64,000 nucleotides of DNA from Candidatus Enterousia intestinigallinarum (GTDB lineage: Bacteria; Pseudomonadota; Alphaproteobacteria; Rs-D84). The notes below the pieces were generated by a model that saw only the letters and a list, made by a program, of their open reading frames with translations, had not been told where the DNA came from and did no database searches. The DNA is taken from the NCBI GenBank assembly GCA_018716885.1, contig DVJI01000012.1:78050-142049 (forward strand). Direction: 5' to 3'. A program made the position numbers and the translations under genes. Below are positions 10,391 to 55,251 of this stretch, one piece after another. Position 1 is the stretch's first letter. Every line of letters starts with the position of its first letter.

Positions 10391-13300
10391 TTATTCCATA
10401 CTGTCATCATATACAGAATAGGTTGTTCCACCAGAGTTCAACTTCAACGCACCTATACCACTGGCCCCCATATTTCCATAGAACGTTGTTCCATTGATAC
10501 TTACGTTCAGGGACGGGGTAGTTTTCCGTTCACTGCGCAGATAAATCTTTTCACCGTTGACGTTCAACACACGTCCACAGTCACCGACTTCATCAGCACC
10601 GGCACCGGAACCTATCGTGGTCAACCCGTCATCACACGCATTGCGAACACCTGCGCTGCCCTGGGATACGGTGGATGCCGCCGCCCAATATCCGGCACCA
10701 ACATCAGAACACGTTGTGTTATTTGCCGTTGCAATATATGAACCACCACCACAAGAAATCTTACAATCACTTGCCGTATCGTGGTTTGCGGCCGCGGTGC
10801 CACTGATTGTATAGTTGGTCAAACAGTTGCTGTACGAACTGATACTGCCCTGGGCGACACTGTGTGCACCGACGTACCAGTTACCAGCCGGTGTAGTACA
10901 ACTTGTTGCGTTTGCCGCGGTAATTCTGGTACCCGCCGCACAACTGATTTTACAATCCGTTGATGCATCGTGGTCCGTACGCGCTGTTGTATTTGGCGTT
11001 GAATAATTCGTCAGGCACGCTTTGACCGTTGTGGTCGGCGTTGTTGAGCCCGCCGTCACACTGTGTGACGCAGTGTACCAGCTGCCCGTTGGCGTTGTAC
11101 ACGCTGCATCTGCTGTTACCACACGGGTACCCGCCGCACAAGTAATACTGCAATCAGATTTTGCATCGTGATTCGACGCTGCGGTACCACTGGTTGAATA
11201 CCCCGACGGACACGCCGTACACGCCGACATTCCAGTTGATGCGGCATAAGTATTAGCAGCACACACCGAACAAGACGTTGCGGTACTGTCATCAGTCCCC
11301 TGGAACGTGCCAACCGCGCACGCCGGACAGGTTATGCCGCTGACATACCGTCCTGCTTTTGCAGTAACAGATTTCACGGTTTGCTGACAATCTTCACTAT
11401 TCGTTGAACACCCTGATTTAATTGTGCCATCTGCACTGCCTGTGCTGTTAGAATATGCCACGTATGAACAGGCCGGCAAAGTACAGGTGTTACACGTGCT
11501 GTCCGAACAGCCAGTTGGTGTTGCACAAGATATTTGTTCACCGGTCCACGCACGTGACTTGCTGTTACTGTAACAAGATGTAATAGCAGCAGCACCGGCA
11601 TCTGAATTCGGATAACCAGACGGGCAGGTGTTGCGTGTACTGGTTGAACCATAGCTCACGCTATGTGCCGCACGATAGTACCCGTCACCAACCGCCGTAC
11701 ACGCCGCCTCTGCGGTTGCAACGTACGTACCGCCCGCACAACTGGTTTTGCAGCCGCTTTCGGATGATGCCGCCGCACCGCTGCGATAGTTCGCCGGACA
11801 CTGGGTTCGTGTACTGGTCGAACCATAGTTCACAGTATGTGCCGCACGATAGTATCCGGTACCGACGGATGTACACGCCGCATTAGCCGTGGCAACATAT
11901 GTCCCACCAGAACAGGATATCTGACAAGATGACGCCGCGGTTTTTCCAGCTGTGGTATTGGCGGTATACCCAGACGGACAATTATTCTGCACACCACTGC
12001 TGCAATATGTCGCGCCAGTACACTGCGACTGACCAGTACAGTTGTTGCCACTGGTGTTGCAGCCCGTTGTATAATAACCACTGCCGACGGTGCTACACGC
12101 CGATGCGCCATCCGCACTGTACTTAGTACGTCCAGTACACGCACTGCACGAAGATGTTGATCCGTAATAAACCGTATGCGCCGCTTTATATGTACCCGCC
12201 TCACAGGTCGATACAGATGTCGCATTTGCCGTTGCAACGTATTTACCGCCGGAAACACTCATATAGCATTTAGATATACCACCTTCATTACCATCAGCAG
12301 AATTTGGATATGCCGACGGGCAGGCACTGCACGACGTTCCATTGTCATAGTACCCAGCATCTGCAGTTACCGCTGCCGGTGTTTTTGTACAATTAGACGG
12401 TGTGCACGTCGTATCGGTTGCACTTTGATAATCACGGTATGAACAAGTCCCCGGGGTACAACTGTTCCACGATGTAACACTGGCGCAGTTGGCCGGAACA
12501 CTGCCGTTTACCTGGTTACCGGTCTTCGTTTTTGTTACATAGCAGTACGCGTCGCTGATATTGCCGCCGTCGGATTTCGGATAACCAGATGGGCAGGCAC
12601 TGCAGCTTGTTCCGTTCACATAGAAGTTTTCCTTTGCTGTGACGGCCTTTGGTGTTTTGGTACAATTAGACGGCGTACAAGTACCATCAGTTGCACCATT
12701 ATAATCCTTATACTGACAGGTTCCTGGGGTACAACTGTTCCACGATGTAACGCTGGCGCAGTTGGTCGGAACACTGCCGTTCACCTGGGATCCGGTTTTT
12801 GTCCCATACTTATAACAATATGAACTGCTGATATTACCACCATCTGAATATGGGTACGAAGAACCACATTTTGCGGCACTACCACCACTCAAGTAATAGT
12901 TGTCATCAGCAGACGTACACGTTTGTGGTTTCGTACAATTAGTCGGTGTACAATCACTTACAATCGTACCACTGTATTGCTTGGTATACGTACAAGTCCC
13001 TGGGGTACACGTTCCCAACGTACGCGCCGCACACCCAGTTTGCATAGACGGCGTTGTTTGTGAACCGGTCTTTGTAAACGAACCAACGCAAGAATTCTGA
13101 TTGGCTGCACCAGCACCGTCACGATACCCGGATGGGCACTGTGCCTGGGCGCTGTTACTGGACTTGTAAAATCCATCTGAAACCGTTTTACACGATGTTT
13201 GGCCAACTGCATTTTGATATTGCAAAGAACCACTGCACGCACTGCGGCCGGACGTTCCACCGGGACAGGCATATCCCGCTTGGCACTGGGTACAGGTTGT

Positions 13301-14197
13301 ACCATTTACATACGCACCGGCCTTGGCAGATAATGCTGACGATACCGTCGTTGCACCCCACGCGGTCGCACTGGTCGCGTTTTGTTTTAACGTACCGGCG
13401 CTGCAATACGTACTGGCCGATGTTGCTGCGCGCGTTTGATTACATTGGGTATACGATGTCCATCCGGTGCCACTATTACGCGTCCACCCGGACGTCTGCG
13501 CCGGACAACTGTTCTGAACACCACTGCTGCAATATGTCGCACCCGTGCATTGTGATTGACCGGTACAGTTATTACCACTGCTGTTACACCCGGTTGTATA
13601 ATATCCACTGCTGACCGTTTTACACGACGATGCCCCGGCCGCACTGTACTTTGTACGTCCTGTGCATGCACTGCACGATGCGGATGCCTGGGTGCCACTG
13701 CCGGGCTTGTACGTACCGGCCGAACACGCCGACCATACTGCATATACCGTATCATTGGCGGTAAATGTCATAGATGTCGAACCAGACGTCGCAGTACTGG
13801 ATGTTGACCATCCCTTGAATACATATCCAGCACGATAAAACGTCGTTGTCGCACCAGATTGCAATGAACACGAAGCCCCCTTGTTACAAGTCTTGTTGGC
13901 CGGCTTTGTTCCAGACCCACCGTTCAAATTGTATGTAATCGTAACAGTCTGTTTAACCGGCGCAGATGTTCCCCCAGCACACGTATAATAAGAACCATAA
14001 TCCGAACATGGACGACATGCGTTCCCAGCCCTTGGGGTGCCATTATATACCGTGCTTGATGAAGATGTCGCCATATAATACCCAGATGCACAACTGGTAT
14101 ATTTCTTGTAACTGGGACAAGAATAGCCAGCAGCCAACGCATTGCCGGCAAAAATCAACATAAACAAACACGCTAAATAACGCAGAATTTTTGACAT
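10391..14197 (-). CDS. Very large (1268 aa) secreted Cys/Ser/Thr/Gly-rich repeat protein with many CxxC motifs (surface protein, uncharacterised)
   Basis: N-terminal signal peptide MSKILRYLACLFMLIFAGNALA. Several long internal repeat units, e.g. ...YGSTSSCSACTGRTKYSA...GYYTTGCNSSGNNCTGQSQCTGATYCSSGVQN... occurs twice, and CTPGTC...NGSVP.NCASVTSWNSCTPGTC recurs. No hydrophobic core. Confidence 0.8.
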   Translation of the reverse strand: MSKILRYLACLFMLIFAGNALAAGYSCPSYKKYTSCASGYYMATSSSSTVYNGTPRAGNACRPCSDYGSYYTCAGGTSAPVKQTVTITYNLNGGSGTKPANKTCNKGASCSLQSGATTTFYRAGYVFKGWSTSSTATSGSTSMTFTANDTVYAVWSACSAGTYKPGSGTQASASCSACTGRTKYSAAGASSCKTVSSGYYTTGCNSSGNNCTGQSQCTGATYCSSGVQNSCPAQTSGWTRNSGTGWTSYTQCNQTRAATSASTYCSAGTLKQNATSATAWGATTVSSALSAKAGAYVNGTTCTQCQAGYACPGGTSGRSACSGSLQYQNAVGQTSCKTVSDGFYKSSNSAQAQCPSGYRDGAGAANQNSCVGSFTKTGSQTTPSMQTGCAARTLGTCTPGTCTYTKQYSGTIVSDCTPTNCTKPQTCTSADDNYYLSGGSAAKCGSSYPYSDGGNISSSYCYKYGTKTGSQVNGSVPTNCASVTSWNSCTPGTCQYKDYNGATDGTCTPSNCTKTPKAVTAKENFYVNGTSCSACPSGYPKSDGGNISDAYCYVTKTKTGNQVNGSVPANCASVTSWNSCTPGTCSYRDYQSATDTTCTPSNCTKTPAAVTADAGYYDNGTSCSACPSAYPNSADGNEGGISKCYMSVSGGKYVATANATSVSTCEAGTYKAAHTVYYGSTSSCSACTGRTKYSADGASACSTVGSGYYTTGCNTSGNNCTGQSQCTGATYCSSGVQNNCPSGYTANTTAGKTAASSCQISCSGGTYVATANAACTSVGTGYYRAAHTVNYGSTSTRTQCPANYRSGAAASSESGCKTSCAGGTYVATAEAACTAVGDGYYRAAHSVSYGSTSTRNTCPSGYPNSDAGAAAITSCYSNSKSRAWTGEQISCATPTGCSDSTCNTCTLPACSYVAYSNSTGSADGTIKSGCSTNSEDCQQTVKSVTAKAGRYVSGITCPACAVGTFQGTDDSTATSCSVCAANTYAASTGMSACTACPSGYSTSGTAASNHDAKSDCSITCAAGTRVVTADAACTTPTGSWYTASHSVTAGSTTPTTTVKACLTNYSTPNTTARTDHDASTDCKISCAAGTRITAANATSCTTPAGNWYVGAHSVAQGSISSYSNCLTNYTISGTAAANHDTASDCKISCGGGSYIATANNTTCSDVGAGYWAAASTVSQGSAGVRNACDDGLTTIGSGAGADEVGDCGRVLNVNGEKIYLRSERKTTPSLNVSINGTTFYGNMGASGIGALKLNSGGTTYSVYDDSME

Positions 14198-20076: not shown

Positions 20077-20205
20077 AATTTCCTTTCCCTTACATTTTTA
20101 CGGCAAAAATGTATCACAACAGTTTTTTGATTGCAAAAGAAAAAGAAAAATTGTATAAATTCATTGTGTGGGTATAGGAAGTATTTCATAATAAGAGAGA
20201 AAAAA

Positions 20206-20622
20206 ATGAGTGGAAAACCTTTTCAGCCAACAGCTGTTGACGAGCATATTGGCCAACGTGTGCAACTGCGTCGTGTTATGATGGGGCTGTCACAAAAAGA
20301 TTTGGCGAAAATATGTGGTGTAACATTTCAACAGATTCAGAAATACGAAAGTGCGGGCAACCGTATTTCCGCATCACGCCTGTTTGAACTAAGCACGGCG
20401 TTAGAAACCCCGATATCGTTCTTTTTTATCGGTTTGCCGGGGTATATGCCGGAACCGAACCGCAGTGGTCGCATACCCCAACGTGTATCAGAACAGAAAT
20501 CCAATGACCCGCTGTCAAAAAATGAATCTTTGCAGTTGATAAATTTATATTGGAAACTGCCAAATGATGAACAGCGCAAAACCATTATGGATATGTTACG
20601 GGCATTAAACGGCGTTGAATAG
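20206..20622 (+). CDS. XRE-family HTH transcriptional regulator, small conserved alphaproteobacterial type
   Basis: HTH_3 block LRRVMMGLSQKDLAKICGVTFQQIQKYESAGNRISASRLFELSTALETPISFFF. Ribosome-binding site (agagaga) before the internal ATG. Confidence 0.75.
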   Translation: MSGKPFQPTAVDEHIGQRVQLRRVMMGLSQKDLAKICGVTFQQIQKYESAGNRISASRLFELSTALETPISFFFIGLPGYMPEPNRSGRIPQRVSEQKSNDPLSKNESLQLINLYWKLPNDEQRKTIMDMLRALNGVE

Positions 20623-20639
20623 ATATAGTTAAAAATTAT

Positions 20640-20669
20640 AAACACGCCCCGAATTTTCGGGGCGTGTTT
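20640..20669. terminator. Bidirectional intrinsic terminator (aaacacgccccgaattttcggggcgtgttt)
   Basis: Perfect hairpin between convergent genes. Confidence 0.65.
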
Positions 20670-20675
20670 ATTATA

Positions 20676-21947
20676 TTATTGACGTATCAAAGATTGAATT
20701 GTTTGCGGTACGGAAACTGCCTGTTGCAGGGTAAATCCAGATGACCGCAATACGAACGGTGAAGTTGTACTAACACCATTTTTTACGCAATCGGAATATG
20801 CCTCTGCCTCGGCAATCATCCAGCATTGGTTGTTCAACGGCGTTTCCTTTGATTGACCGGTACCATACTGCATTGTGGTCTTATCATATCCGGCCGCCGC
20901 AACACAGTAATTTGTTGACGGGGAATCTGCGTCAAATATATATCCAATATCACACTGAATACAAACACCACCGTCCGGTGACGCACCACCACGCAGATTT
21001 TCCGTACACGGTTGGCACGTTCTGTCCGCCAATGACGGGAAAGCATAACCCTTTTCACGACATCTGTATGTATAGCATCCCATATTGTCGTTAAATTCCA
21101 ACATCATTGTCGCTTCATCAAATCCATTGCTGGGCCAGTTTGAACACGTCTGGGTCAGGGCACACGCTGTTTCATCAATGGCAACGCAATCATTACCCGC
21201 CGCATTGGCAGTATAACCATTTTTGCACAGCAATGTCGCTTCGCCCGCGGGCCAACCATCAATACCACCGCGTTTACTTTTCCACCCTTCGCGACGTGCA
21301 CGAATAACAAAAGGTTGTGCATACGCCCCGTGTCCACTTGCCAGCCAGTCAGACACCACCAAAATCATATCGTGTTCCTGGCCCTTATGCACCCCGCAGC
21401 CATTATATTGATTCCAATGAAACATTGCCACGGCTGATTCAACCTGTGGATCACGCGCCATAGTTAAACTGTTAAAATCATCACGACGAAACGGTGTTGA
21501 ATCACATCCAGTCGGGGCGGAATCCTGGCAACCTTCACCACCGAATCCCGGTTTGCACAACCAATAACAGGTCTGCGCACCCTGACCAGATTCCGCATAC
21601 AATGTCCAGGCATTACCTTTTTTCTTTTTTTCGGCATACACCGTGGTTGGACAGAACCGTGCGCCATTTTCATTTACTTCGCGCGCAACCAGCAACAACA
21701 CCCCCATATCGTCGCCCAACACACATTGCCCCGGGGAATTTGCATCAATGCCATAATTTCCCTTACAGGTATCCTTGTACCGGCCGATTGTCGCATTCCC
21801 AAAATTAGAACTCTGACAGTGGCTCATAACCGGATTTTTCCAACTGCCCAACAGCGCATTTATATTATTTTCACCACCGGCAATCGCAACACACGGAACA
21901 ACTTGTGCAATAAATAATGATAAAAGTATGTTTCGTATATTTCTCAT
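20676..21947 (-). CDS. Secreted cysteine-rich protein (424 aa), uncharacterised
   Basis: Signal peptide MRNIRNILLSLFIAQVVPCVAIAG with a ribosome-binding site upstream. About 30 Cys. No recognisable domains. Confidence 0.6.
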   Translation of the reverse strand: MRNIRNILLSLFIAQVVPCVAIAGGENNINALLGSWKNPVMSHCQSSNFGNATIGRYKDTCKGNYGIDANSPGQCVLGDDMGVLLLVAREVNENGARFCPTTVYAEKKKKGNAWTLYAESGQGAQTCYWLCKPGFGGEGCQDSAPTGCDSTPFRRDDFNSLTMARDPQVESAVAMFHWNQYNGCGVHKGQEHDMILVVSDWLASGHGAYAQPFVIRARREGWKSKRGGIDGWPAGEATLLCKNGYTANAAGNDCVAIDETACALTQTCSNWPSNGFDEATMMLEFNDNMGCYTYRCREKGYAFPSLADRTCQPCTENLRGGASPDGGVCIQCDIGYIFDADSPSTNYCVAAAGYDKTTMQYGTGQSKETPLNNQCWMIAEAEAYSDCVKNGVSTTSPFVLRSSGFTLQQAVSVPQTIQSLIRQ

Positions 21948-21960
21948 TTTAATTACCTGT

Positions 21961-24477
21961 TTATTCCGCAACATAACATACGGAGTTTTCATAATACCCG
22001 CCCATCAGTTCTTCGCACTGTGCACGATACCATTCATCGGTAAATGTGCATTCGTCACGCGACAAATCATATGATGCAACCGGTGTTTCCAATCCGTCAT
22101 TATAATCCAGGCAACGCAACATTGTCGTGTTTTCAACACAGCGTCCCCAATCGGTTACTTCATTACCACCATACACCTGTCTATAGAACCCAGACAGCAA
22201 AGTTCCTTCGCCACTGACACGACTGTCAACAACGTTAGTAACACTGTCATCATTATCCATCCAGTACCCATCCAATTCTTCACAAGTTTCCATCAACTGG
22301 TAATCCAGTTCTTCCTGAATATCATCTATTGCGCGTTTTATCTGATCACTAACCTGTGCGATAAATTCATCACCGGAACTGGTCGGATCCGCACAATTTT
22401 GACTTGCAAAGTTCTGAATAGATTCTTCCAATTCATCCGGACTCATATTACGGCAGTTCCACGGATAGCCCATTTCTCCATCATCCGGGGTGCACAAATC
22501 CGCCAGATAATTATCAATCGCGGTTTCGCAGCCCTCGGTAATACGAACGGTATCAACCGTGTCAACAAACGCCAACAAAGCGGTCAGACCACACCGGTCT
22601 GCGGCGGCAGCACCAGTTAAACTGCTGCTGTTATTACCGCTGCCGGCCACTAATCTGCCATTACCATCAAATTCACAACCGTCAGTGTTTCCATACAATG
22701 ACGCACAGGCGATAACCTGATCCTGGCACATTGAACGTGCAGCATACGCACTGATTGCACCGGTATATTGCGATGTAGTATTGTCAAAATCCTGCAACGC
22801 GCCAGTTTGCGTATCATAACATTCGGCCATAGTGCTGACACAGGACATTTTGACTTCTTCTATTTTTTCATCCTGTGCCTGTGCAATTTCAATCAGGGCC
22901 TGGCGCTTAAATTCTTCCCATACAATATCAGATATATCACGACAGGTATCTAATGCGCTTTCTGCAAACATACGTTTGTCGTCCAAAAATGTATTAAATT
23001 CCGAATTTGCACTCAATACATCACCAGCGTTACTGGCATTTACCCCCGGCAGTAATATCATATTCGTCAATTCAAACAAGCGCGGTGAATAAATCGGCTC
23101 ACCCGTACTTTGGTTGATATATGCCCCGGTATAGTCCAAACAACGTTGATAATTCGGACCACAGGCCGTATCCGCCTGAATAGCGGAACGAACATTTGCG
23201 ATACATTCGTTCACGTCGGCTGAATTATGTGATTGATATTCTTCCAGACGTGCTTCACGCAGGTATTTTTCCGCCGTACGTACAGTTTGTTCCAATCCCT
23301 CTTTTTGAGAATTTATATTTTTCTCATACAGGTTGCAATCCTGTGTAATCATAATGCTGTACGCGCTGCGCGCCATTGTCAAAACGGCATTATTCTCGCA
23401 AGAATCTGCGATTAAATCCAGACATTGTTTGCTGGCCTCGTTATACAAATCCTGGCCGGTCAGGGTGGACAAATCAACCCCCGTTGACGTATCAAATATA
23501 GAACTGCCAGAATCGCCCCAAATATCACCCAAGTCAGATGTAAAATCAACCGTCAACAGCCCCAGCGAAGTCCCCGACGAACTGGATGACGAAGACGATG
23601 AACTGTTTCCAGACAACAAATCACTGATTTCCGACAACATATTTGCCGCGGCACTGGTGTCACGTTTGATTGCATTTTCACCCTCGGTCGCGGTGTACAT
23701 TGCGGTAACTTCTTCGGCCGTCAGATTGACCGCCGTCAGATTATTATCCTGGAACTGCGCCAACAGGTTTAATGCCTGGTCAATCGCGTTTTCCGTATCA
23801 CGAAATTCATCATATCGGGCACTGCACACGCATCTGCGGTATGTGTCATTTGCATTTGCACAAAACTGATCCATACAGGTTGCATACGCTTCACGACATT
23901 CTGCATAACCGCCCCCAATGGCAGAAATATCTGTAAAGACCGCTGTTGCACGCGCGGTTGATGCACGCGATGCCCCAACAACGGAATTAGTCGATGCCGC
24001 ACGCGCCGTACTGGCCGGATTATGCGTTGCGCCACGCACGACATTTGACGATGCCGCACGCGATGTGGTTGCACTGCGTGCCGCAGTTGCTGATGTCGGA
24101 ATCGTCTGACGAATTGTGCCGCTACGTCCAGTGACAACATTTGTTGCCGATGGCATAATATTTGCCGAACGCGCCACAGTCGTGCTGGGGCGTGATGTCG
24201 CACTGCGCGACACGGTTGTTGCCGCCGCACGTCCTGAAACAGTTGACGTCGTTGTCGGTGTTGTACCCGACGTTGCAGCGGAATTTACACGCACAACGCG
24301 ACTGCTGTTTGCACGCGATGTTGCACCAGTGGCCGCGTCCGATGTCGCAACCGTAACAGACGCCGTGGACGAGCCACGTGGATTTGGTGCCTGTTCAGCC
24401 AACGCCGGCCAGCACAGTGCCAACACCGACCAAAAAGCAAGTGAATATTTGCAAAAATCAGCAACGCGTTTAATCAA
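21961..24477 (-). CDS. Large secreted protein (838 aa) with a Thr/Ala/Arg/Ser-rich N-terminal low-complexity region and a conserved Cys-containing core; paralog of 60824..63580
   Basis: TTG start followed by signal peptide (…SLAFWSVLALCWPALA). The core aligns block by block with the 918-aa protein, e.g. C.EAY..CMDQFC...D.YRRC.CS.R, ATEGENA, GPNYQRCLDYTGAYINQSTGEPI. Confidence 0.65.
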   Translation of the reverse strand: MIKRVADFCKYSLAFWSVLALCWPALAEQAPNPRGSSTASVTVATSDAATGATSRANSSRVVRVNSAATSGTTPTTTSTVSGRAAATTVSRSATSRPSTTVARSANIMPSATNVVTGRSGTIRQTIPTSATAARSATTSRAASSNVVRGATHNPASTARAASTNSVVGASRASTARATAVFTDISAIGGGYAECREAYATCMDQFCANANDTYRRCVCSARYDEFRDTENAIDQALNLLAQFQDNNLTAVNLTAEEVTAMYTATEGENAIKRDTSAAANMLSEISDLLSGNSSSSSSSSSSGTSLGLLTVDFTSDLGDIWGDSGSSIFDTSTGVDLSTLTGQDLYNEASKQCLDLIADSCENNAVLTMARSAYSIMITQDCNLYEKNINSQKEGLEQTVRTAEKYLREARLEEYQSHNSADVNECIANVRSAIQADTACGPNYQRCLDYTGAYINQSTGEPIYSPRLFELTNMILLPGVNASNAGDVLSANSEFNTFLDDKRMFAESALDTCRDISDIVWEEFKRQALIEIAQAQDEKIEEVKMSCVSTMAECYDTQTGALQDFDNTTSQYTGAISAYAARSMCQDQVIACASLYGNTDGCEFDGNGRLVAGSGNNSSSLTGAAAADRCGLTALLAFVDTVDTVRITEGCETAIDNYLADLCTPDDGEMGYPWNCRNMSPDELEESIQNFASQNCADPTSSGDEFIAQVSDQIKRAIDDIQEELDYQLMETCEELDGYWMDNDDSVTNVVDSRVSGEGTLLSGFYRQVYGGNEVTDWGRCVENTTMLRCLDYNDGLETPVASYDLSRDECTFTDEWYRAQCEELMGGYYENSVCYVAE

Positions 24478-24536: not shown

Positions 24537-25193
24537 TTATTCAATGCAACAATTTACCGCATTTTTTACCCAGTCACCCAAACGACGCACCGCCGACTTA
24601 GATTCTGCAACAGTCGGCGCCTTTTCCGGCACGGTTGCAGATGTCGGCTTTTCCGCGTCAACCACACATTTTGCATATACGTCTGGCGCAATTTTTTTAA
24701 CCCCGGTCAAATCGATTAAATCCATATTGATGCCCCAGAACAAAGAATACAGTTCATATGACTTGTTAAACAAATCATATGCATCACGGGTATTACCAGC
24801 GGATAGCGCCTTGGTTCCAACTTCCATAACACGCATAGACGCAGCCAACAAATGCTTGGAAATGCACCATACTTCGCCATTTTCGGCCGATGATTTTTTA
24901 ACGATACGGCTCATTAAATCCTTGCGCATATCGCGAACAGTATTTATCAAATCGTAAAAACCGGTTTTTTGCGTTTTTGCGCCGCTGAAAAAGAAATGTT
25001 CTTCCAGTGAAATCAGGTTCATCAGCGCGATAGACAAATCCTGGTCTGATGATAAATCCAACGGATTTACTTTTTTAGATGCATCAACACGCGCCACCAT
25101 TTCTTCCAGTGTCATTTTCGCTGCGCGATTTGACTTTTTATTTGACGCCTTTGCGGCCGCTTGTTTTACCGTTTTTTCAGATTTTTTTGCCAT
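24537..25193 (-). CDS. Hypothetical cytoplasmic protein with a basic Lys/Ala-rich N-terminus
   Basis: ORF of about 218 aa on the same strand between the membrane-protein gene and the 838-aa gene. No homology recognised. Confidence 0.45.
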   Translation of the reverse strand: MAKKSEKTVKQAAAKASNKKSNRAAKMTLEEMVARVDASKKVNPLDLSSDQDLSIALMNLISLEEHFFFSGAKTQKTGFYDLINTVRDMRKDLMSRIVKKSSAENGEVWCISKHLLAASMRVMEVGTKALSAGNTRDAYDLFNKSYELYSLFWGINMDLIDLTGVKKIAPDVYAKCVVDAEKPTSATVPEKAPTVAESKSAVRRLGDWVKNAVNCCIE

Positions 25194-25219
25194 AATTTTC
25201 CTTCCTTTCAAAAATCAAA

Positions 25220-25729
25220 TTACATTGTAATCAGCCAGAACACGATTGTCGCCACAATCAAAAACGACAATGGAACAACAACCTTTTGAAATGCGAACTT
25301 TGCGTGACCGCCGTTTTCACGTTTAATTTTGATATACCAACGCGCGCCCAGATAAAACGCGATTGTGCCGACAATAATACCCAACAAGAACTTATCAATT
25401 CCCCACAGTGTCGCCGCGCCAAATTCCACACTGGGCAACGCATAAACCAACCCCAGCAGTCCGTAATAGAATACGAACGGCACAACAATCTGCCAGAAAG
25501 CACTTTTTACATTATGCTTTTTCAACCAGCCGGCCGTCCAGAAAAACAGCGACAATGTCAATCCACCGGCCCAGATTCCGGTAATAACATCATCAACCCC
25601 CAGCAAACGCATACCTTCCAACCCAGCGCCAACCGCAACCGTGCACACTGGACAAACCGCCATTGCCGCCGGCATAACCATCAACATCGCCAACGCCGCA
25701 AATCCCAACTGTGAAATAACTTTTTTCAT
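25220..25729 (-). CDS. Polytopic inner-membrane protein (169 aa) with a CPVC motif, uncharacterised
   Basis: About 4-5 hydrophobic helices. Starts 8 nt after the preceding gene on the same strand. Confidence 0.5.
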   Translation of the reverse strand: MKKVISQLGFAALAMLMVMPAAMAVCPVCTVAVGAGLEGMRLLGVDDVITGIWAGGLTLSLFFWTAGWLKKHNVKSAFWQIVVPFVFYYGLLGLVYALPSVEFGAATLWGIDKFLLGIIVGTIAFYLGARWYIKIKRENGGHAKFAFQKVVVPLSFLIVATIVFWLITM

Positions 25730-30169: not shown

Positions 30170-30976
30170 TTACATAACCTTGCCCTGGGTCGGGTAAAAG
30201 GTCAGTTGTATTTTTTCCCACTTATCAAACTCATTTTCCGGCAGCATCTTAAACGGCTGGCACACATTTATCGCACTGCGTATTGTGTCCAGGACATACG
30301 CAAACGCTGGATCTGTTTCCGCACGCGCCGCCGATTCAAACCATACATCACGCACAGTACCATTACGACGCATCGTCAAATGCGCCACCGCACGAATATC
30401 ACCAATATCCGCGCGTGTTGTATCTATTGTCCAACAACGCGTCATCGCCACACGCAGCGCATCAACCACCGACACCGTCAACGTGCGATTCAGTGACACA
30501 GATTCACGGTTTACGCGTATAACTGTTTTTTTCTTCTTTGGCTTTTCCGTTTCAGATTGGGTCGGTTTTGGTTCGTCTTCAACCGTTTTCACAACTGGAT
30601 CCGGCACGTCCGGGGCGATTGGCGTTTCTTCAACCAAACTTGGGACAGTTATTTGTTCCGGTTCCGTTTCTATTGGCGCGGGTTCTGGTTCCGGATCGGC
30701 CACGGATGCCGCATCGTTGTCACTTTGATTTGACACATCTGCGTCATCGGATGTTTCTGGTTCAGAATCTGCATTGACATTATACAAAGTAGTTTCATCA
30801 CCACTGACACGCACAGAATCCAAATCGATTTCCAGTATTTCTATGCGATCGGACGCCACGGTCATTGCACGATCAACAACAACGGCGAACGACGTCACCA
30901 TTATCGCAATCAGCGCCAGGTGCCCACACACGGATATCAAGAAATTTTCTGATGAAAATCGATTGCCAAAATTCAT
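30170..30976 (-). CDS. TolA/TonB-like periplasm-spanning protein
   Basis: N-terminal transmembrane anchor, a Pro/Glu-rich spacer (PEPEPAPIETEPEQ) and a C-terminal TonB/TolA-like domain. It lies downstream of tolQ/tolR-like genes. Confidence 0.55.
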   Translation of the reverse strand: MNFGNRFSSENFLISVCGHLALIAIMVTSFAVVVDRAMTVASDRIEILEIDLDSVRVSGDETTLYNVNADSEPETSDDADVSNQSDNDAASVADPEPEPAPIETEPEQITVPSLVEETPIAPDVPDPVVKTVEDEPKPTQSETEKPKKKKTVIRVNRESVSLNRTLTVSVVDALRVAMTRCWTIDTTRADIGDIRAVAHLTMRRNGTVRDVWFESAARAETDPAFAYVLDTIRSAINVCQPFKMLPENEFDKWEKIQLTFYPTQGKVM

Positions 30977-31395: not shown

Positions 31396-31902
31396 CTATT
31401 TGCGTTTGTCGTATTTTCCGGCTTTCAATTCTTTGACCCGTTCGGTTAAAACGTCATACAGGTCGTCTGATTTTTTACTGAAATACTGATACGCGATTGC
31501 CGCCGGCACCGCCGCAATCAGCCCCAACGCCGTTGTTCCCAATGCAGTTGCCAATCCAGGCGCAATAACACCGATTGAAACGGACTGATTTACACCAATT
31601 GATGCAAACGAATCCATAACCCCCCAAATAGTTCCAAACAGTCCGATAAATGGCGCAACATACGACACCATTGACAAGAACCACAGATTTCTATCAAACG
31701 GACGTATCAATTTATCTGCAATCAAAGATAAATTGTCACTGTTTTTAATCTGTACCGGATGTTTTTTCTGAAAATGCCACAGGCGGATTTTTTCAACAAT
31801 CACAGCCCAGGACATAATGCTGCCTAACACCAACACCAACGAAATGAACAACGTCATCAAGTCGCCAGTAAATAACGTCGTCAAAGAAAAAGCATTTGTC
31901 AT
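31396..31902 (-). CDS. tolQ: TolQ/ExbB family proton-channel protein (short form)
   Basis: MotA/TolQ/ExbB signature in the C-terminal half (GLFGTIWGVM...ALGTTALGLIAAVPA). Confidence 0.75.
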   Translation of the reverse strand: MTNAFSLTTLFTGDLMTLFISLVLVLGSIMSWAVIVEKIRLWHFQKKHPVQIKNSDNLSLIADKLIRPFDRNLWFLSMVSYVAPFIGLFGTIWGVMDSFASIGVNQSVSIGVIAPGLATALGTTALGLIAAVPAAIAYQYFSKKSDDLYDVLTERVKELKAGKYDKRK

Positions 31903-31929: not shown

Positions 31930-32307
31930 TTATTCCCTGAACGGTTCGGCGACGCTGTCCGGTATACGCTTTGGCATCATATTGGCACCGATATATGCCG
32001 CCGTTCCAGTAAGTATAGCACAAATCACGCCGTCTTTCACGAACTTTTGTTCAACCGACATCGATGCCGCCCCCAATTTAGTCACAGCAGTTTCAACAAT
32101 AACTGTGTCCGATAAAAACAGCGGATGCACATACCTTATACTTAAATCCCGCACAACAAAGCCAACGTCACCGTCCGGAAATTTAATTCCGCGCAATATA
32201 TCCATACGCGCACGTTCGGCAATTTCAATATAGCGACCGTGATACACTATGCCGCCAGCATCAGTATCAGCATATGCAATCGCAAATGGAAATTTATGAA
32301 TTTTCAT
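31930..32307 (-). CDS. ybgC: Acyl-CoA thioesterase of the YbgC (4HBT) family
   Basis: Hot-dog thioesterase sequence. It lies immediately upstream of tolQ-tolR, as in tol-pal operons. Confidence 0.7.
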   Translation of the reverse strand: MKIHKFPFAIAYADTDAGGIVYHGRYIEIAERARMDILRGIKFPDGDVGFVVRDLSIRYVHPLFLSDTVIVETAVTKLGAASMSVEQKFVKDGVICAILTGTAAYIGANMMPKRIPDSVAEPFRE

Positions 32308-32921
32308 TTAGCAACCTCTACAAAAGAATTTGAATCTATCCCAAGTTCATTTTTTAATCTATCTGAAACCCGCCGTCTTATTTCTTTAAACACTGCCTTT
32401 AAAATTGGTTCAAAGTCAAAACATGCAGCAAATTCATCAGAAAAGAATAATTTCCAATAAAAATTATCGTTATATTCCCCAACGTATTTTAAATCTTTTG
32501 CGCACAGATGCTGGACGGTGGTATCTAATCTATCTAATGCCTTTACTAATTTTGATTCTGGCGATACACGTTTTTCATACTCATCAAAGCAATCTGCCAC
32601 ATCAGGATTTTGTATCATATCCATAATTTTTCTGACGGCACAGGCCTCTTGCATACTTTTTTCCATACGGCACGCATCGTCCTGCTGATGCAGCGGCACG
32701 TCATGAGCAATCGCTTCGGGCAGGTCATGCAAAACGCATAATTTCAAGACCTTTTCCATATCATACTTTCTGGTAAAATAAGGTTCCATGGCCACCGCCA
32801 TCATCGCCATATTCCATGAATGCGACGCAACGGCCTGCTGATTATTGTCAGACATACGAGTTAACCTGTACTCGCATTCTAACCGTTCGGCAATCTTCAA
32901 AAAATCAACTATTTCTTTCAT
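32304..32921 (-). CDS. HD-domain phosphohydrolase
   Basis: H..HD metal-binding motif (VLHDLPEAIAHD). Confidence 0.6.
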   Translation of the reverse strand: MKEIVDFLKIAERLECEYRLTRMSDNNQQAVASHSWNMAMMAVAMEPYFTRKYDMEKVLKLCVLHDLPEAIAHDVPLHQQDDACRMEKSMQEACAVRKIMDMIQNPDVADCFDEYEKRVSPESKLVKALDRLDTTVQHLCAKDLKYVGEYNDNFYWKLFFSDEFAACFDFEPILKAVFKEIRRRVSDRLKNELGIDSNSFVEVAK

Positions 32922-34727: not shown

Positions 34728-35657
34728 ATGGCTAGATTTATTTTAATGACGATGTTTGCCGGATTGGTTGTTTTTAATGTGCACGCTGCAACAACGGATG
34801 AAACGGTCGTGTATGATAACTTCCAAACAATTTATACGGAAACACCGGTACAATCTTATTATGCATATCCGGATGACCCCAATTTTATACCGGAAACGGA
34901 GTTTATGAACCGGGCCGACAGTTTGGATTATGATTTTAATATAGAAGAAGCGCGCCAATTTGAAACTATGTTGCATCCGGGGGTATCGTTTGCCGACCGC
35001 CCGATGATTATATGCCGTAATTTCGGGTGCACGCGCCTGAACGACCGTATAACGCGCACTTTCTTGTTTAACAGTTTGGCGAATATGTTTATGATGAACG
35101 AATATTCCCGCGTCTATATCTGTGAAGCAGATCCGTTTTCACGCGACTGTCTGCAGTCCGGAATATCGTTCCCGGTACGCAGCGGCATCGCCAACGCCCT
35201 GGTTAAAATCCCCAAGGCAACAATTTCCCAGGTAAACGTTTCAACCGGCCTGTCCAAGGCGACGGTCAGTATGACATACGAATTCCTGGTCAACGGAATC
35301 GCGCGCACGTGCGAACCAACAATTATGGATATCGTTGTTCCAATAAATTCCCAGGCAACCCTGTCCAACCGCGAATTTACCTGTAATATGACCAGTGATG
35401 GTTTAAGCAACGTGTCGCTGTTGGTCAGCATCGACTATATCGATTTGGACTATGGCATTTTGGGCGGCTATTATTCATTGGGGATGCAGGGGCCGACAAC
35501 TGGTGGTGGCACCGGATACGCACTGTTCAAAACGGAATTTACCACTGGTGGTATGCAGTTCCGCGCCGCCGTTACTGGTGAAGACGATATTGCCGGTGCA
35601 AATTCTATGATGACGATACAACCCGGCGAATATGCGGTTGAACCGCTGAAAAAATAA
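34728..35657 (+). CDS. Secreted protein (309 aa), uncharacterised, immediately upstream of the two-component system
   Basis: Signal peptide MARFILMTMFAGLVVFNVHA with a ribosome-binding site. Scattered Cys pairs. No homology recognised. Confidence 0.5.
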   Translation: MARFILMTMFAGLVVFNVHAATTDETVVYDNFQTIYTETPVQSYYAYPDDPNFIPETEFMNRADSLDYDFNIEEARQFETMLHPGVSFADRPMIICRNFGCTRLNDRITRTFLFNSLANMFMMNEYSRVYICEADPFSRDCLQSGISFPVRSGIANALVKIPKATISQVNVSTGLSKATVSMTYEFLVNGIARTCEPTIMDIVVPINSQATLSNREFTCNMTSDGLSNVSLLVSIDYIDLDYGILGGYYSLGMQGPTTGGGTGYALFKTEFTTGGMQFRAAVTGEDDIAGANSMMTIQPGEYAVEPLKK

Positions 35658-49661: not shown

Positions 49662-52052
49662 TTACAGCAACGGCGGGAAACAATCGCCACCGGCTTCTGG
49701 GCAACAGTTGAATCCCATATCACCCATATCGGTATAAACTTCACCAGTGCAGCACCCGTTCACGTCCGGCGCCGTACCGTCTGGACAGGTCGGCAAATCT
49801 TCAACCGTATCCGACCATACCACGGACGTTACAGATTGCGGAACATATCCGTCATCGGACGCCACCGATGCTTGGGATGAATTTAATCCGGATTGATTTT
49901 CCACCGGCGCGCTGACAATCGACGGACCGACTGTATCAACGGCCTGCATATTATTTTGACGCAATGTTTCGGTATCGTAATTTTCATCTGCGACAAACAT
50001 ATTTTCATTTTGTGAAACGTTATATGCCGGCTTGCTGGCCAAAATTTCTTCTTCAGTTGGAATTTCCGGCTTTGGTTCAGTGCTTGAAACTGGTGTGGTT
50101 ACGGCGACAGATTCAACAACCACATCAGCTGCTGGCACTTGTTCAGCAACCGTTTCTGGTGTATCAACAGGTTCCGGTTCTGGTTCTGTCACTGGTTCTG
50201 GTTCCGGAATTTCCACGGGAGCCGGTTCTTCCACAACAGGTTCCGGTTCGGGTTCTTCCACAGGAACGGGCACTGTTATTTGCGTTTCAACAGTTTCAAC
50301 TGCGGCCGGCGTTTCCAATTCCGGTATAAACGGACTGTCCGCATCAGTTAAATCATCTGCCTGTGCGGTTTCCGTTGTGGTTGGCACTGTTGCGGTTAAA
50401 TCAGGTGCATTTTCACTGGTGTTCTTTTGATACAACCACAATGTAAATATAGACAACCCAATCAACAACACCAACATTATATAATAAACTAATGTAGGTT
50501 TACGCGGTGCTGGATTACTTGGCGCCACATTACCAGTAATCGGCGACACAGGACGCGGCGCGGACGCAGCAGCCGAAACAGTTGACGCCGGCGGGACAGG
50601 GCGCGCCCCTGCATCTACCGCTGGCGACGCCGTGGCGGGCGCCTGGGGTTCTGGATTTTGTGCCGCTGGCAGCGGTTCAGATTCTGCATCTGGTACAACT
50701 GGCGAAATATTCGGCACCAGTTCAGAATCTAATTGTTGGGCAGAATTATCCGCGGCCGTCGGCATATTCACGGACGTAATTGTATCCAAAACCGGTGTTG
50801 TTGCTTTTTCATCTGATACACGCGGTGCTTCTTCACCAGTTACAGGTCTGACATTTATTGGCGCGTTGTCCGCACGCTTATCAGACGGTGGTGTGAACGA
50901 CAACGGTTTGTCATCAATAATATTTTCATACACTTCCGGATTGTCGGTAACCGGACTTGTTTCATCAGACACCGGACTGGAAACACCAAACTCAATCGGC
51001 TTAAACGCGATTTCTTCGTCCAATATTTCCGGGTCTTTATCAAACAGTGGTTTTACCGCATCATTATTTGTTTCATCGGCCATTATTTCCGCCTTTGGTT
51101 CTTCATTTATATTTTCTGTAAATTCCACGCGTTCTTCTTCATCAACAGGCATACGTGCAACCACATCATCATCAGACGCCACGGCCGCAACACTGGTATG
51201 TGCAGGCGCACCAACCGCAGTTGATTCAACAGGCGCAGAATCACCGGCCACGGATTCTTTGTCATCCGTATCAAAATCCACATCCGTATCATAAGACACA
51301 TTGTATGTTGTTGTAACCGATGGAATAGCATCGTGTGCCTGCGGGGCATCGACATCACGCACAACAGCAACCGGTGCACGCGCCAAAATTTCACGCGCAA
51401 TTTGTGCATCTTCGTCCGCAACAATCAGGCGCCGCTGTGCATTATCCAGACGTTTTTTTGCACGACGCAGTTTTTCATTTGTTGCATCAATCTGCGCATC
51501 CGTACGCAATATTTTAGACGCCGACTTTTTTGTCGGTTCACGTCCGACCTGTTTTTTCTGTTGCGACAACTTGGCCCGCAACTGGCGTAATTTCGTTTGC
51601 AGTTCGGCAATGCTTTCACGTGTTCTGACGATTGTTTCGCGTGCAGTTTCGGCATTTGCATCTGCAACGGCCAAACGTTCCGTCGCTGCGCGCCGGACGG
51701 AATCTTCACGAAAAGCAGTCAGTGCCGTCAGCGCCGCCGTCAAATCATCGCCATTTTCATATGCGTTGATTAAATTGTCGTATTCAGCCAAGCCGCTGTA
51801 TTCAATATCTAACTTTTGATATTTATTATTTTTCTTTGGGCGCACAGTTTCCAAATCAACGTTATAATCATTGGCCAAAATGTCATCCCATTTGCGGTCA
51901 CCAACCGGATTTATCACCAAAAGAGCATTTGGCTTGCGATCGTCCAGCGTGCTGTCCAAAACAAACACCAACTTATCATCGGCATCATAATACGCACGCA
52001 ACACGTTTCCGGCGATATTGTATTCCCTGAACGTCAAAACAGATTTATCCAT
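49662..52052 (-). CDS. Single-transmembrane protein (796 aa): cytoplasmic coiled-coil N-domain, one transmembrane helix, periplasmic acidic Pro/Glu-rich repeats and a Cys-rich C-terminal knot
   Basis: Ribosome-binding site (GAGAGGGAAAA) then ATG. Heptad-like region LRQLRAKLSQQKK...LRRAKKRLDNAQRRL. Transmembrane helix LVYYIMLVLLIGLSIFTLWLY. Repeat run EPEPEPVVEEPAPVEIPEPEPVTEPEPEPV. C-terminus CPDGTAPDVNGCCTGEVYTDMGDMGFNCCPEAGGDCF. Confidence 0.6.
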   Translation of the reverse strand: MDKSVLTFREYNIAGNVLRAYYDADDKLVFVLDSTLDDRKPNALLVINPVGDRKWDDILANDYNVDLETVRPKKNNKYQKLDIEYSGLAEYDNLINAYENGDDLTAALTALTAFREDSVRRAATERLAVADANAETARETIVRTRESIAELQTKLRQLRAKLSQQKKQVGREPTKKSASKILRTDAQIDATNEKLRRAKKRLDNAQRRLIVADEDAQIAREILARAPVAVVRDVDAPQAHDAIPSVTTTYNVSYDTDVDFDTDDKESVAGDSAPVESTAVGAPAHTSVAAVASDDDVVARMPVDEEERVEFTENINEEPKAEIMADETNNDAVKPLFDKDPEILDEEIAFKPIEFGVSSPVSDETSPVTDNPEVYENIIDDKPLSFTPPSDKRADNAPINVRPVTGEEAPRVSDEKATTPVLDTITSVNMPTAADNSAQQLDSELVPNISPVVPDAESEPLPAAQNPEPQAPATASPAVDAGARPVPPASTVSAAASAPRPVSPITGNVAPSNPAPRKPTLVYYIMLVLLIGLSIFTLWLYQKNTSENAPDLTATVPTTTETAQADDLTDADSPFIPELETPAAVETVETQITVPVPVEEPEPEPVVEEPAPVEIPEPEPVTEPEPEPVDTPETVAEQVPAADVVVESVAVTTPVSSTEPKPEIPTEEEILASKPAYNVSQNENMFVADENYDTETLRQNNMQAVDTVGPSIVSAPVENQSGLNSSQASVASDDGYVPQSVTSVVWSDTVEDLPTCPDGTAPDVNGCCTGEVYTDMGDMGFNCCPEAGGDCFPPLL

Positions 52053-52738: not shown

Positions 52739-53215
52739 ATGATTTACAATATCTTTTTCATTGTGCTGTTGGCGGTGGCGGCCATATGCGCGTGGCGTAT
52801 TTGCGTTGCCGATTGGCGCCGTCGAATAATACCAGATGCGTATTTGTTCCCGCTGCTGTTGATTGGATTGATTATAACGCACTTTTTCCCGTGGCCGACA
52901 TCCCCCGCCGACGGGGTAATTGCGGCAATATTCGGATATGCACTGGCCGCGTGTGTTGGGTTTATTTTTGACGTTCGTCAACGTCACCAGAATAAACCGA
53001 ACGTCGCGCCTGCACCAATCGGTATGGGCGATATAAAACTGATGGCGGCGGGCGGAATATGGTTGGGGACAGTTGGACTAGCCGTGGCACTGATTGTCGC
53101 GTGCGTGGCCGGAATAGTATGGGGATTGCGCCGGAAACAAAAATATATCCCGTTTGCACCGTTCTTTATTATTGGTGGAATTTTGTCTTTAATTACAATG
53201 GTGTTTTTGATATAA
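52739..53215 (+). CDS. cpaA: Type IV prepilin peptidase, CpaA/TadV-like (A24 family)
   Basis: 158-aa polytopic membrane protein with CpaA-like Asp-containing motifs (ADWRRRIIPD...GMGDIKLMAAGG). Confidence 0.6.
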   Translation: MIYNIFFIVLLAVAAICAWRICVADWRRRIIPDAYLFPLLLIGLIITHFFPWPTSPADGVIAAIFGYALAACVGFIFDVRQRHQNKPNVAPAPIGMGDIKLMAAGGIWLGTVGLAVALIVACVAGIVWGLRRKQKYIPFAPFFIIGGILSLITMVFLI

Positions 53216-53235
53216 TAATCTAAAAACAGGGAATA

Positions 53236-54144
53236 ATGGACAGAGAAATGAAATCGAAAATATTATCCATAATCGGTGCCGTATTCGGTCTGGGGGCAAT
53301 GCCGGCAATGGCAACGACATTTCCGACAACCACAACGCCTTTTTCACAATATGGCCAAATTCAAAATGTTCAAAATTATTCATCAAATCCATTTTGGAAC
53401 CCGAACAGCCCGTATAACCAGCGTATGCCCGTACCAGTTTATGTTCAGGGTACCGATGTGGATACAAACGATTGTCAAACGGTTGTTGGGGCATTGGTGT
53501 CGGCATATTGTGCATCGCGCAACAACTGTGTTGGGATTGACGTTGACGACGCGCGCCCGACGTTGACCGTACAGTTGGCCAGTTTGCCTAACCATAACTA
53601 TGTCACACCGTGTGCTGGATATATCGACACGGAATTCAGCAAATATGTATCCCAAAATGCACTGGCCGTACCGACGGGCGGGGCGGTTGCATTTCCAACG
53701 GCAACAACACCAAACACAAACACGAACAGCCAACCGGCGGAATTTCAAAACCCATATCAGCAGCAATTACCAACCTGGAACGGCGAACCGTGGATGCAGG
53801 ATATGCTTGAACGCAAACAGGAATTGGAACAACTGCAATCTGCGACCACTGGTGGCGATACAACATTGGCACGTGCTGACTTTCCGTCATCGGCATCAGA
53901 TTTGACATTTACCCAGCGGATTCAAAACGACGCGGCGGGCTATGCACCATACACGGGCAAATCTGCATACCGTACAATCAACATAGAAAGTGAAGAGGCA
54001 TACCAACAGCGTACAAATGCATATTGCTCATCTGAAATTGCCAAACTTACAACAATTGATACAGACCTGGCAACACTATACAAATGTAAAAACGACGGAA
54101 CTCCGTTCAACGATTGCAAAAAATTATTAAAGGGAATTTATTAA
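53236..54144 (+). CDS. Secreted Gln/Asn/Pro/Thr-rich protein with Cys pairs (302 aa), uncharacterised
   Basis: Signal peptide MKSKILSIIGAVFGLGAMPAMA. First of four consecutive exported-protein genes after cpaA. Confidence 0.5.
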   Translation: MDREMKSKILSIIGAVFGLGAMPAMATTFPTTTTPFSQYGQIQNVQNYSSNPFWNPNSPYNQRMPVPVYVQGTDVDTNDCQTVVGALVSAYCASRNNCVGIDVDDARPTLTVQLASLPNHNYVTPCAGYIDTEFSKYVSQNALAVPTGGAVAFPTATTPNTNTNSQPAEFQNPYQQQLPTWNGEPWMQDMLERKQELEQLQSATTGGDTTLARADFPSSASDLTFTQRIQNDAAGYAPYTGKSAYRTINIESEEAYQQRTNAYCSSEIAKLTTIDTDLATLYKCKNDGTPFNDCKKLLKGIY

Positions 54145-54146
54145 AA

Positions 54147-55244: not shown

Positions 55245-55251
55245 AATTTTT

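Follow-up and report, generated by a model that had tools for sequence, protein, structure and literature searches.

The window analyzed here, a stretch of 64,000 nucleotides from Candidatus Enterousia intestinigallinarum (contig DVJI01000012.1), encodes two large paralogous proteins of 838 and 918 amino acids (aa). They belong to a family that is new at the family and fold level, because no relatives in sequence or fold are detectable; the functional class proposed for it, that of a variable, exposed envelope protein, does have analogues. Comparison of related genomes identified the C-terminal domain of the 838-aa protein, together with the gene downstream of it, as a hypervariable and recombined cassette. 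Our leading interpretation, to which we give a little less than an even chance, is that these ancient, order-specific paralogs act as an extracytoplasmic stalk, in the envelope or on the surface, whose variable head is assisted by a partner protein. Throughout, the two paralog types are termed 838-type and 918-type, and the gene of the downstream 438-aa protein is termed cys438.

Ca. Enterousia is a member of the order Rs-D84 of the Alphaproteobacteria, a lineage that has genomes of <1 Mb without biosynthesis and respiration; Rs-D84/Ca. Enterousia are common in the guts of humans, livestock, rodents and birds and probably of termites (PMC12306168). With such genomes and almost no biosynthesis, these bacteria must live off other cells, and their dependence on other cells is presumed; as candidates for the interaction with their partners, the authors of the Rs-D84 study named only "hypothetical membrane-bound proteins" (PMC12306168). 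Genes for rod shape and peptidoglycan synthesis are kept in Rs-D84 genomes (PMC12306168). The window is a piece of bacterial chromosome with a GC content of about 46–48%, and it contains secA, dnaK, dnaE, rsmH, L25, iPGM, ruvB, tolQ, argS, tig, thyA, rpsA, corA, gcrA, the RNase P RNA and tRNAs.

The two paralogs and their novelty

The two genes are positioned as follows:

21961..24477, minus strand: gene of the 838-aa paralog, an open reading frame (ORF) including the stop codon, with a TTG start
60824..63580, plus strand: gene of the 918-aa paralog, an ORF including the stop codon, with an ATG start

Both ORFs were already placed at these positions by an earlier note on this DNA; they lie on opposite strands, about 36.3 kb apart, and the TTG start of the 838-aa ORF is preceded by a Shine-Dalgarno-like AGAGAG stretch. 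The paralogy claimed in the same note was borne out by pairwise alignment: BLASTP with compositional adjustment gave 34% identity and 51% positives over 552 aa (E = 4e-74), far above compositional similarity. In the family alignment, both clades share about 22 invariant Cys columns, which reach the C-termini of both paralogs, so the homology spans the whole folded part, beyond the ~550 aa aligned by BLAST. The motifs quoted earlier (C.EAY..CMDQFC....D.YRRC.CS, ATEGENA, HNS.D...C and CG..Y..CLD.G..I..STG.PI) fall in columns that are invariant or nearly so in alignments of 30 to 139 family sequences; the core of the 838-aa protein contains CxEAYxxCMDQFC, YRRCxCS, ATEGENA, HNSxD and CGxxYxxCLD. 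A family hidden Markov model run against all window ORFs found no further members besides the two paralogs.

Low-complexity N-terminal tracts and a poly-Ser run do exist in these proteins, and the one Pfam match above cut-off, NSP2-B_epitope, is confined to a Ser-rich loop; one might therefore suspect that the similarity is only compositional or that the ORFs are not true genes. This can be ruled out with near certainty: the E-value is reached despite compositional adjustment and across the non-repetitive core, hundreds of full-length orthologs exist, the Cys columns are invariant, and the genes are under purifying selection. The pairwise ratio of nonsynonymous to synonymous substitution rates (dN/dS) of the 838-type gene is 0.09–0.15 as a whole and 0.05–0.09 in the core, so the gene is constrained and functional.

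The impression that the proteins match no recognized family held against Pfam, NCBIfam, PHROGs, PADLOC and PDB sequences, which gave no credible match, and no solved structure matched the fold of the family. NCBIfam, PHROGs and PADLOC contained no family for either paralog; Pfam returned only weak sub-threshold matches to the full proteins, and no enzymatic or eukaryote-like domain in either; a profile search of PDB sequences gave 0 matches at E≤1. Among 30 members, NSP2-B_epitope (28.9 bits) was the only Pfam family above cut-off; with matches in 4 of the 30, all on the Ser-rich loop, it was rejected as compositional. Nine longer relatives (1020–1176 aa) had no Pfam match above cut-off. Having no sequence or fold relatives, the family is a clean target for structural biology.

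Range and age of the family

Word-indexed searches returned >1000 matches for one paralog and >900 for the other, all unnamed or "hypothetical". When 1.84 billion cluster representatives were searched exhaustively with a profile, the family comprised 915 clusters (50% identity) at E≤1e-3 and 421 at E≤1e-30; the only name among its members is "hypothetical protein", from metagenome-assembled genomes (MAGs) of Alphaproteobacteria, Rickettsiales or Proteobacteria. A scan of one genome per species found relatives in at least 547 places, and the best 80 of the 547 were examined. These are gut MAGs of Ca. Enterousia, of uncultured or unclassified Alphaproteobacteria or of "Rickettsiales", plus a few mis-binned contigs, and they include a circular genome of 958,618 bp. 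No relatives of the family were found on viral contigs, and nothing on these proteins was found in the literature.

Judged by this distribution of sequences, a check that had been proposed, the family looks lineage-specific for the order Rs-D84/Ca. Enterousia. The earlier suggestion of a lineage-specific secreted effector or surface family thus stands as regards the lineage-specific look and Sec export, whereas the effector or surface part stays conjectural. Three contigs deposited as Bacteroides fragilis (L048), uncultured Muribaculaceae (L034) and uncultured Clostridia (L071) encode clear 838-aa orthologs, in L048 and L034 additionally with Enterousia-type dnaE and rsmH neighbours. Since the same alphaproteobacterial synteny is found on the contigs, these labels probably stem from faulty binning or contamination of public MAGs.

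Clustering on the conserved core separated two deep clades, the 838-type (n = 91) and the 918-type (n = 33, to which 13 longer proteins form a sister group). Orthologs of the 838-type hold a conserved position in 80/80 related loci, and the gene order dnaE–rsmH–p169–p224–838–cys438–(HTH)–iPGM–L25–dnaK, where HTH is a helix-turn-helix gene, occurs in up to 80 genomes. The 918-type gene also has a conserved position, convergent with lpxB–lpxA in orthologous loci, and both paralogs are kept at fixed positions in every related genome examined. As there are two deep clades, each type at its own fixed chromosomal position, the duplication is judged from these comparisons to be ancient, with both copies retained. 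The description of a family duplicated within one 64-kb window was therefore right about the two copies and wrong in so far as it implied a recent local expansion. In two distant members (L088 and L089), the gene context showed no recurring informative neighbour. That a genome of ~900 genes keeps two paralogs of ~850–900 aa in every species examined argues that the family is central to the dependent lifestyle.

Anatomy of the proteins

The regions of the two proteins, as delimited from sequence and model, are:

24397..24477, minus strand: predicted Sec signal peptide of the 838-aa protein, aa 1–27 (K/R n-region, hydrophobic core and ALA/EQ cleavage site; layout shared by orthologs)
23941..24396, minus strand: cationic, predicted disordered tail of the 838-aa protein, aa 28–179 (composition, motifs, charge, dN/dS)
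22561..23940, minus strand: conserved acidic, putatively Cys-stapled helical core of the 838-aa protein, aa 180–639, with 18 Cys (lowest alignment entropy, invariant Cys columns, AlphaFold2 (AF2) model)
23575..23604, minus strand: poly-Ser run of 10 Ser, aa 292–301, within a variable, low-confidence Ser/Gly/Thr loop
21964..22560, minus strand: variable C-terminal alpha/beta domain of the 838-aa protein, aa 640–838, with 10 Cys (highest alignment entropy)
60824..60883, plus strand: predicted signal peptide of the 918-aa protein, aa 1–20 (sequence)
60884..61273, plus strand: cationic tail of the 918-aa protein, aa 21–150 (charge)
61274..62623, plus strand: conserved core of the 918-aa protein, aa 151–600 (paralogy, Cys counts)
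62624..63577, plus strand: variable C-terminal region of the 918-aa protein, aa 601–918 (most divergent part between species)

Both proteins begin with the signal peptide that had been read in them, of Sec type in each case (MIKRVADFCKYSLAFWSVLALCWPALA/EQ and MKKILHFIGIFAVCIGVANA/AV, the slash marking cleavage), and these sequences mark both proteins as Sec-exported. The signal peptide of the 838-aa protein is one of its two top hydropathy peaks, tied at 1.33 and below the transmembrane range, a range reached by no other segment of either protein.

The low-complexity tract that follows, also described before, comprises about 130–150 aa, among which Ala, Thr, Ser, Arg and Val predominate. In the 838-aa protein it has a pI of 12, with 16 Arg, 0 Lys and 2 acidic residues, and the motif [AV][SA]R[SAT]A[TA] recurs in it. 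Across 100 cluster representatives, the tail has a median length of 158 aa and consists of Ala (18%), Thr (16%), Ser (15%), Arg (11%) and Val (9%); Asp, Glu and Lys are nearly absent, Arg residues are mostly spaced 5–9 residues apart, and composition and motifs are conserved. Pairwise dN/dS of the 838-type tail is 0.16–0.21. The net charge of the tail is +14 and +11 in the two window proteins (pI 12) and that of the folded bodies is strongly negative (−75 and −52, pI 4.1–4.4), a calculated charge layout that is clearly dipolar, with a basic tail and an acidic body. No other Arg/Ser/Thr/Ala tract is present in the window; the idea that the tail is a sorting module common to other secreted window proteins was rejected, as only the two paralogs carry it.

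The folded body was modeled by AF2 (mean per-residue confidence, pLDDT, 81.5; predicted TM-score, pTM, 0.64) as mostly long helices of up to 55 residues followed by a small alpha/beta C-terminal domain. Within the family alignment, aa 180–600 are the most conserved and aa 640–838 the most variable by entropy. The poly-Ser tract, first counted as 11 residues, is in fact a run of 10 and no hallmark of the family: it is encoded by mixed Ser codons in a Ser/Gly/Thr loop that differs among orthologs, and pLDDT falls below 50 there (core residues 117–147 of the model).

The mature proteins contain 28 and 30 Cys. An even number of Cys was counted in 289 of 305 members (95%) and in 72 of 86 cluster representatives, and the Cys columns of the C-terminal domain are invariant in all 16 aligned 838-type sequences and mostly common to the 918-type. 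Signal peptide, conserved Cys positions and even Cys count place the family with disulfide-bonded extracytoplasmic proteins; since even counts are what all-disulfide proteins have, the cysteines almost certainly form disulfides. Recurrent C-x6-C spacings on the helices suggest helix–helix staples.

A hypervariable, exchanged C-terminal cassette

Three features define the cassette:

20676..21992, minus strand: cys438, downstream partner gene for a secreted protein of 438 aa (22 Cys when mature), sharing a 32-nt overlap with the end of the 838-aa gene
20638..20671, strand not assigned: strong bidirectional intrinsic-terminator-like hairpin with a 15-bp stem, closing the transcription unit after cys438
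20850..22550, minus strand: recombinant block with approximate ends, from 838-type aa ~642 to cys438 aa ~381 (sliding-window identity and synonymous substitution rate, dS)

The overlap is consistent with the translational coupling of cys438 to the 838-aa gene that we propose. The synteny of cys438 is kept in 68/80 related loci. Its domain content is limited to weak EGF-like fragments, and its family comprises 53 matches at word-index sensitivity, all hypothetical, a small number expected from its fast divergence; the Cys count is even in 44/49 members. Kinship of cys438 with the C-termini of the paralogs or with a 1268-aa Cys-rich protein of the window, and its fusion to longer family members, were considered and rejected, as none was found. 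Convergent with cys438 and sharing its terminator is an Xre-type HTH_3 gene (20131..20622, plus strand; about 138–163 aa), which is present in 59/80 related loci and may be a local regulator.

In 62 genomes, identity to the window proteins is 60–91% (median 70%) for the 838-type core (aa 180–600), where it follows DnaE identity (rho 0.77), 34–98% (median 45%) for the C-terminal domain (aa 640–838) and 26–94% (median 35%) for cys438; the latter two diverge much faster than the core. There are 21 genome pairs in which the core is >85% identical, the C-terminal domain <65% and cys438 29–64%. Identities of the C-terminal domain and cys438 covary when DnaE or the core is controlled for (partial rho 0.44–0.51, p about 1e-4 to 1e-5).

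The exchange itself is visible in two comparisons. A conspecific contig (L083) is ~99% identical to the window over 20 kb and drops to 75–95% between about 22750 and 21150. Another species (L082) shows the converse: its flanks are 65–85% identical with dS >1.7, and identity rises to 96–100% over 1.7 kb between about 22550 and 20850, with regional dS of 0.21 and 0.12 inside the exchanged interval. The mosaic of the window recurs in an independent assembly of another sample (L090), which rules out assembly chimerism. Weaker discordances were seen for cys438 alone, between L007 and L008 and in L040. In the 918-type gene as well, species differ most in the C-terminal part. Taken from these alignments, the 838-type C-terminal domain and cys438 are evidently hypervariable and recombined.

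A conserved N-terminal region, a hypervariable C-terminus of ~200 aa and an overlapping, co-varying downstream gene that moves with it as one cassette are also what a polymorphic toxin–immunity-like module would present, with the 838-type protein as delivery scaffold for a variable C-terminal toxin in inter-bacterial competition and cys438 as periplasmic immunity protein or partner. We regard this as improbable. The C-terminal domains share one homologous Cys scaffold and are not unrelated toxin folds, and searches of Pfam, NCBIfam and PADLOC turned up no toxin, pre-toxin, Rhs, CdiA or immunity domain. A secreted protein of 438 aa with 22 Cys is atypical of immunity proteins, and no orphan C-terminal/immunity cassettes follow downstream, where the terminator and the conserved HTH gene come next. 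In addition, recombination breakpoints fall inside cys438 too, and the 918-type paralog has no downstream partner.

Localization and proposed function

The window holds an lpxB fragment and tolQ with a TolA/TonB-like gene, and orthologous loci hold lpxB–lpxA and tolR; these genes show that the envelope of the organism is diderm with lipopolysaccharide (LPS). Secretion type, a check raised earlier, could be settled in part: the Sec signal is there, and signals of type I (T1SS) and type V (T5SS) secretion systems are absent from the sequence of both proteins. The proteins carry N-terminal signal peptides and 28–30 Cys and gave no RTX match, which does not fit the T1SS, and a C-terminal beta-barrel translocator of T5SS or Hop type is absent, the C-terminal ~200 aa being modeled as a small alpha/beta Cys-rich domain without a Pfam autotransporter or outer-membrane protein match. 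A lipobox was not found either: the Cys in the signal peptides (LALC/W, FAVC/I) violate the −1 rule and are missing in orthologs such as P0113, P0120 and P0185. Lipoprotein, Tat, pilin, T1SS and T5SS signals were thus considered and rejected from sequence. As no outer-membrane signal is recognizable, sequence by itself places the proteins only in the periplasm.

This bears directly on a reading in which the paralogs are periplasmic envelope-integrity or scaffold proteins, the tail binding peptidoglycan or membrane and the disulfide-stapled rod stiffening or spacing the envelope. The absence of a recognizable route across the outer membrane keeps it a serious contender, if an unlikely one, and with the same restrained confidence such proteins might offset envelope components lost through genome reduction. 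It accords with the presence of a Sec signal only, with the strong purifying selection on the core, and with the retention of both paralogs at fixed positions beside rsmH, tolQ with a TolA-like gene, and lpxB/lpxA. However, a hypervariable terminal domain and partner gene, with alleles that coexist in one species and pass to others, are not expected of a purely internal structural protein, and no homology to known envelope proteins was found. Given the hypervariable, horizontally exchanged cassette, external exposure is more plausible than a housekeeping role in the periplasm.

Alternatively, the proteins might be released as soluble effectors whose target is the animal host or a partner, either eukaryotic or bacterial, with the disulfides conferring protease resistance in the gut lumen. 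The family is indeed exported, disulfide-rich, acidic and soluble, has no membrane anchor and has a variable C-terminal region, and the bacterium is predicted to rely on other cells (PMC12306168). We nevertheless give this little credence, as no secretion system or effector-type signal was identified, neither paralog has a eukaryote-like or enzymatic domain, and a long cationic disordered tail is easier to understand as a tether than in a diffusible effector.

The function of the family can be narrowed to a structural one outside the cytoplasm, in a disulfide-rich protein that carries a variable module open to exchange. In the stalk-and-head interpretation that we prefer, the protein, as read from its sequence, would be exported by Sec and lose its signal peptide, after which the 28–30 Cys would be oxidized to disulfides that staple a long acidic helical body, as Cys parity and the structure model indicate. 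The ~150-aa Arg-rich disordered tail (net +11 to +14) could then tether or space the protein electrostatically at an anionic layer of the envelope, such as LPS, peptidoglycan or membrane. From this layer the acidic body (net −52 to −75) would project away. The C-terminal alpha/beta Cys-scaffold domain would form the distal, exposed head, which in the 838-type may act together with the secreted Cys-rich cys438 in a putative interaction. The head-plus-partner module is kept hypervariable and swapped between strains and species, as would be expected of a part in contact with an outside agent: partner or host cell, mucus, antibody or phage. Attachment or surface shielding would be the likely role of such a protein in a metabolically dependent bacterium with a genome of <1 Mb.

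Several points weigh against this interpretation. Both tethering by the tail and physical contact with cys438 are putative, and no outer-membrane translocation or anchoring signal (beta-barrel, lipobox, T1SS, T5SS, type IX secretion or pilin leader) is recognizable. The genome pairs in the covariation test lack phylogenetic independence. Inter-species exchange is unambiguous in one case only, accompanied by the two weaker cys438 cases, and none of four examined loci of the 918-type had an inter-species shared block. Finally, pairwise dN/dS of the C-terminal domain is 0.10–0.16, and positive selection was not demonstrated.

A more specific proposal, possible though rather doubtful, is that the proteins build a previously undescribed attachment structure, consisting of a cationic tether, a disulfide-stapled helical stalk, an exchangeable head and a Cys-rich partner, which would hold the dependent Enterousia/Rs-D84 cell to a partner cell or host surface. 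Were this true, the head-plus-partner cassette would set partner specificity or permit escape from antibodies or phages, and the family would represent a novel fold as well as a novel kind of adhesion apparatus, in a gut lineage that is widespread but uncultured. One of the two paralogs is tied to a hypervariable, horizontally exchanged module, and the family offers a handle, through antibodies and allele typing, on cell location and attachment targets. The finding would gain weight with an attachment apparatus and lose it if this is just another orphan envelope protein of an uncultured lineage.

Comparison with known systems

Each of the nearest analogues differs from the family in at least one of the defining features tested, and the family is not to be filed under any of them. 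The Hop adhesins of Helicobacter pylori (BabA, SabA) are exported proteins with elongated, largely alpha-helical ectodomains, conserved disulfide-clasped elements and a variable ligand-binding tip, and they recombine frequently between alleles. The helical stalk and variable Cys-containing head of the family resemble BabA and SabA, but the C-terminal beta-barrel translocator of Hop-type outer-membrane adhesins is lacking. The 838-type locus resembles CdiA-CT/CdiI and Rhs-CT/RhsI in that the N-terminal bulk of the protein is conserved, its last ~200 aa are hypervariable, and a neighbouring gene co-varies with these and is exchanged horizontally with them in one cassette. It departs from the CdiA and Rhs systems in the single Cys scaffold of its C-terminal domains, in having no toxin, pre-toxin or immunity domains, in its secreted 438-aa, 22-Cys partner and in the absence of orphan cassettes.

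Chlamydial OmcA and OmcB are Cys-rich, Sec-exported envelope proteins of a host-dependent bacterium with a reduced genome, whose disulfides stabilize the envelope mechanically; OmcB is beta-rich, and to our knowledge neither protein takes part in cassette exchange. The family is likewise Cys-rich and Sec-exported in a dependent bacterium with a reduced genome. Unlike the chlamydial setting, Rs-D84 genomes keep rod-shape and peptidoglycan-synthesis genes (PMC12306168). In addition, the family has no homology to OmcA or OmcB and is mostly helical.

F-type TraN is a large, Sec-exported envelope protein with many conserved Cys and a variable region that sets partner-cell specificity, and the family is similarly large, Sec-exported and Cys-rich with a variable region. 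It has no Pfam TraN match, however, and no type IV secretion system genes lie near it; its genes occupy chromosomal, syntenic housekeeping positions (neighbours dnaE, rsmH, iPGM, dnaK and lpxB/lpxA), with two paralogs per genome. Caulobacter RsaA is an abundant, acidic alphaproteobacterial surface protein whose N-terminal part is bound non-covalently to LPS, an anchoring that resembles the electrostatic tether and acidic body proposed for the family. RsaA is a Cys-free S-layer protein of RTX type secreted by a T1SS, whereas the family lacks RTX repeats, is rich in Cys, is exported by Sec and resembles RsaA in neither sequence nor fold.

Neighbouring genes and other features of the window

Two conserved genes lie between rsmH and the 838-aa gene in the synteny described above:

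24537..25211, minus strand: p224, conserved upstream gene on the same strand as the 838-aa gene, encoding 224 aa without a signal peptide (synteny)
25220..25729, minus strand: p169, encoding a 169-aa membrane protein, between rsmH and p224, with a signal-like N-terminus followed by CPVC and about four predicted transmembrane helices (synteny)

Neither protein has a family or PDB match. p224 has a Lys-rich N-terminus and ends in NCCIE; its identity across genomes looks bimodal (35–48% vs 62–100%), which suggests two allelic classes. The CxxC of p169 is present in 43/43 orthologs, as CPVC in 40/43, and the protein could be a membrane thiol–disulfide oxidoreductase serving Cys-rich exported proteins.

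The genome appears rich in lineage-specific proteins. A large Cys-rich exported protein of 1268 aa (10391..14197, minus strand) carries a Listeria–Bacteroides repeat (Flg_new) and an Ephrin_rec_like Cys-rich repeat; it has no BLAST kinship to cys438, and its orthologs are variable (49–59% identity where detected). ORFs of 796 aa (49662..52052, minus strand) and 309 aa (34728..35657, plus strand) are without a Pfam match. A 205-aa HD-domain gene of the window (32304..32921) is not alignable in L082, L083 and L084. Directly upstream of dnaE lie tolQ (MotA_ExbB) and the gene of a 268-aa TolA/TonB-like protein (30170..30976 and 31396..31902, both minus strand). The arrangement ybgC–tolQ–tolR–tolA-like in orthologous loci argues that the Tol system is retained despite genome reduction.

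At 52739..57418 (plus strand), a short gene for a 158-aa Peptidase_A24 prepilin-peptidase-like protein is followed by four same-strand genes for signal-peptide proteins without a credible Pfam match: one of 302 aa, one of 376 aa that contains a Thr/Pro/Ala repeat as well as a hydrophobic stretch rich in Gly, one of 594 aa and a Cys-containing one of about 106 aa. The arrangement recurs in L081, L085 and L087, and conspecific identity falls to 78% at ~54300, within the repeat protein. From this layout, the region may be an unrecognized pilus or secretion-related module.

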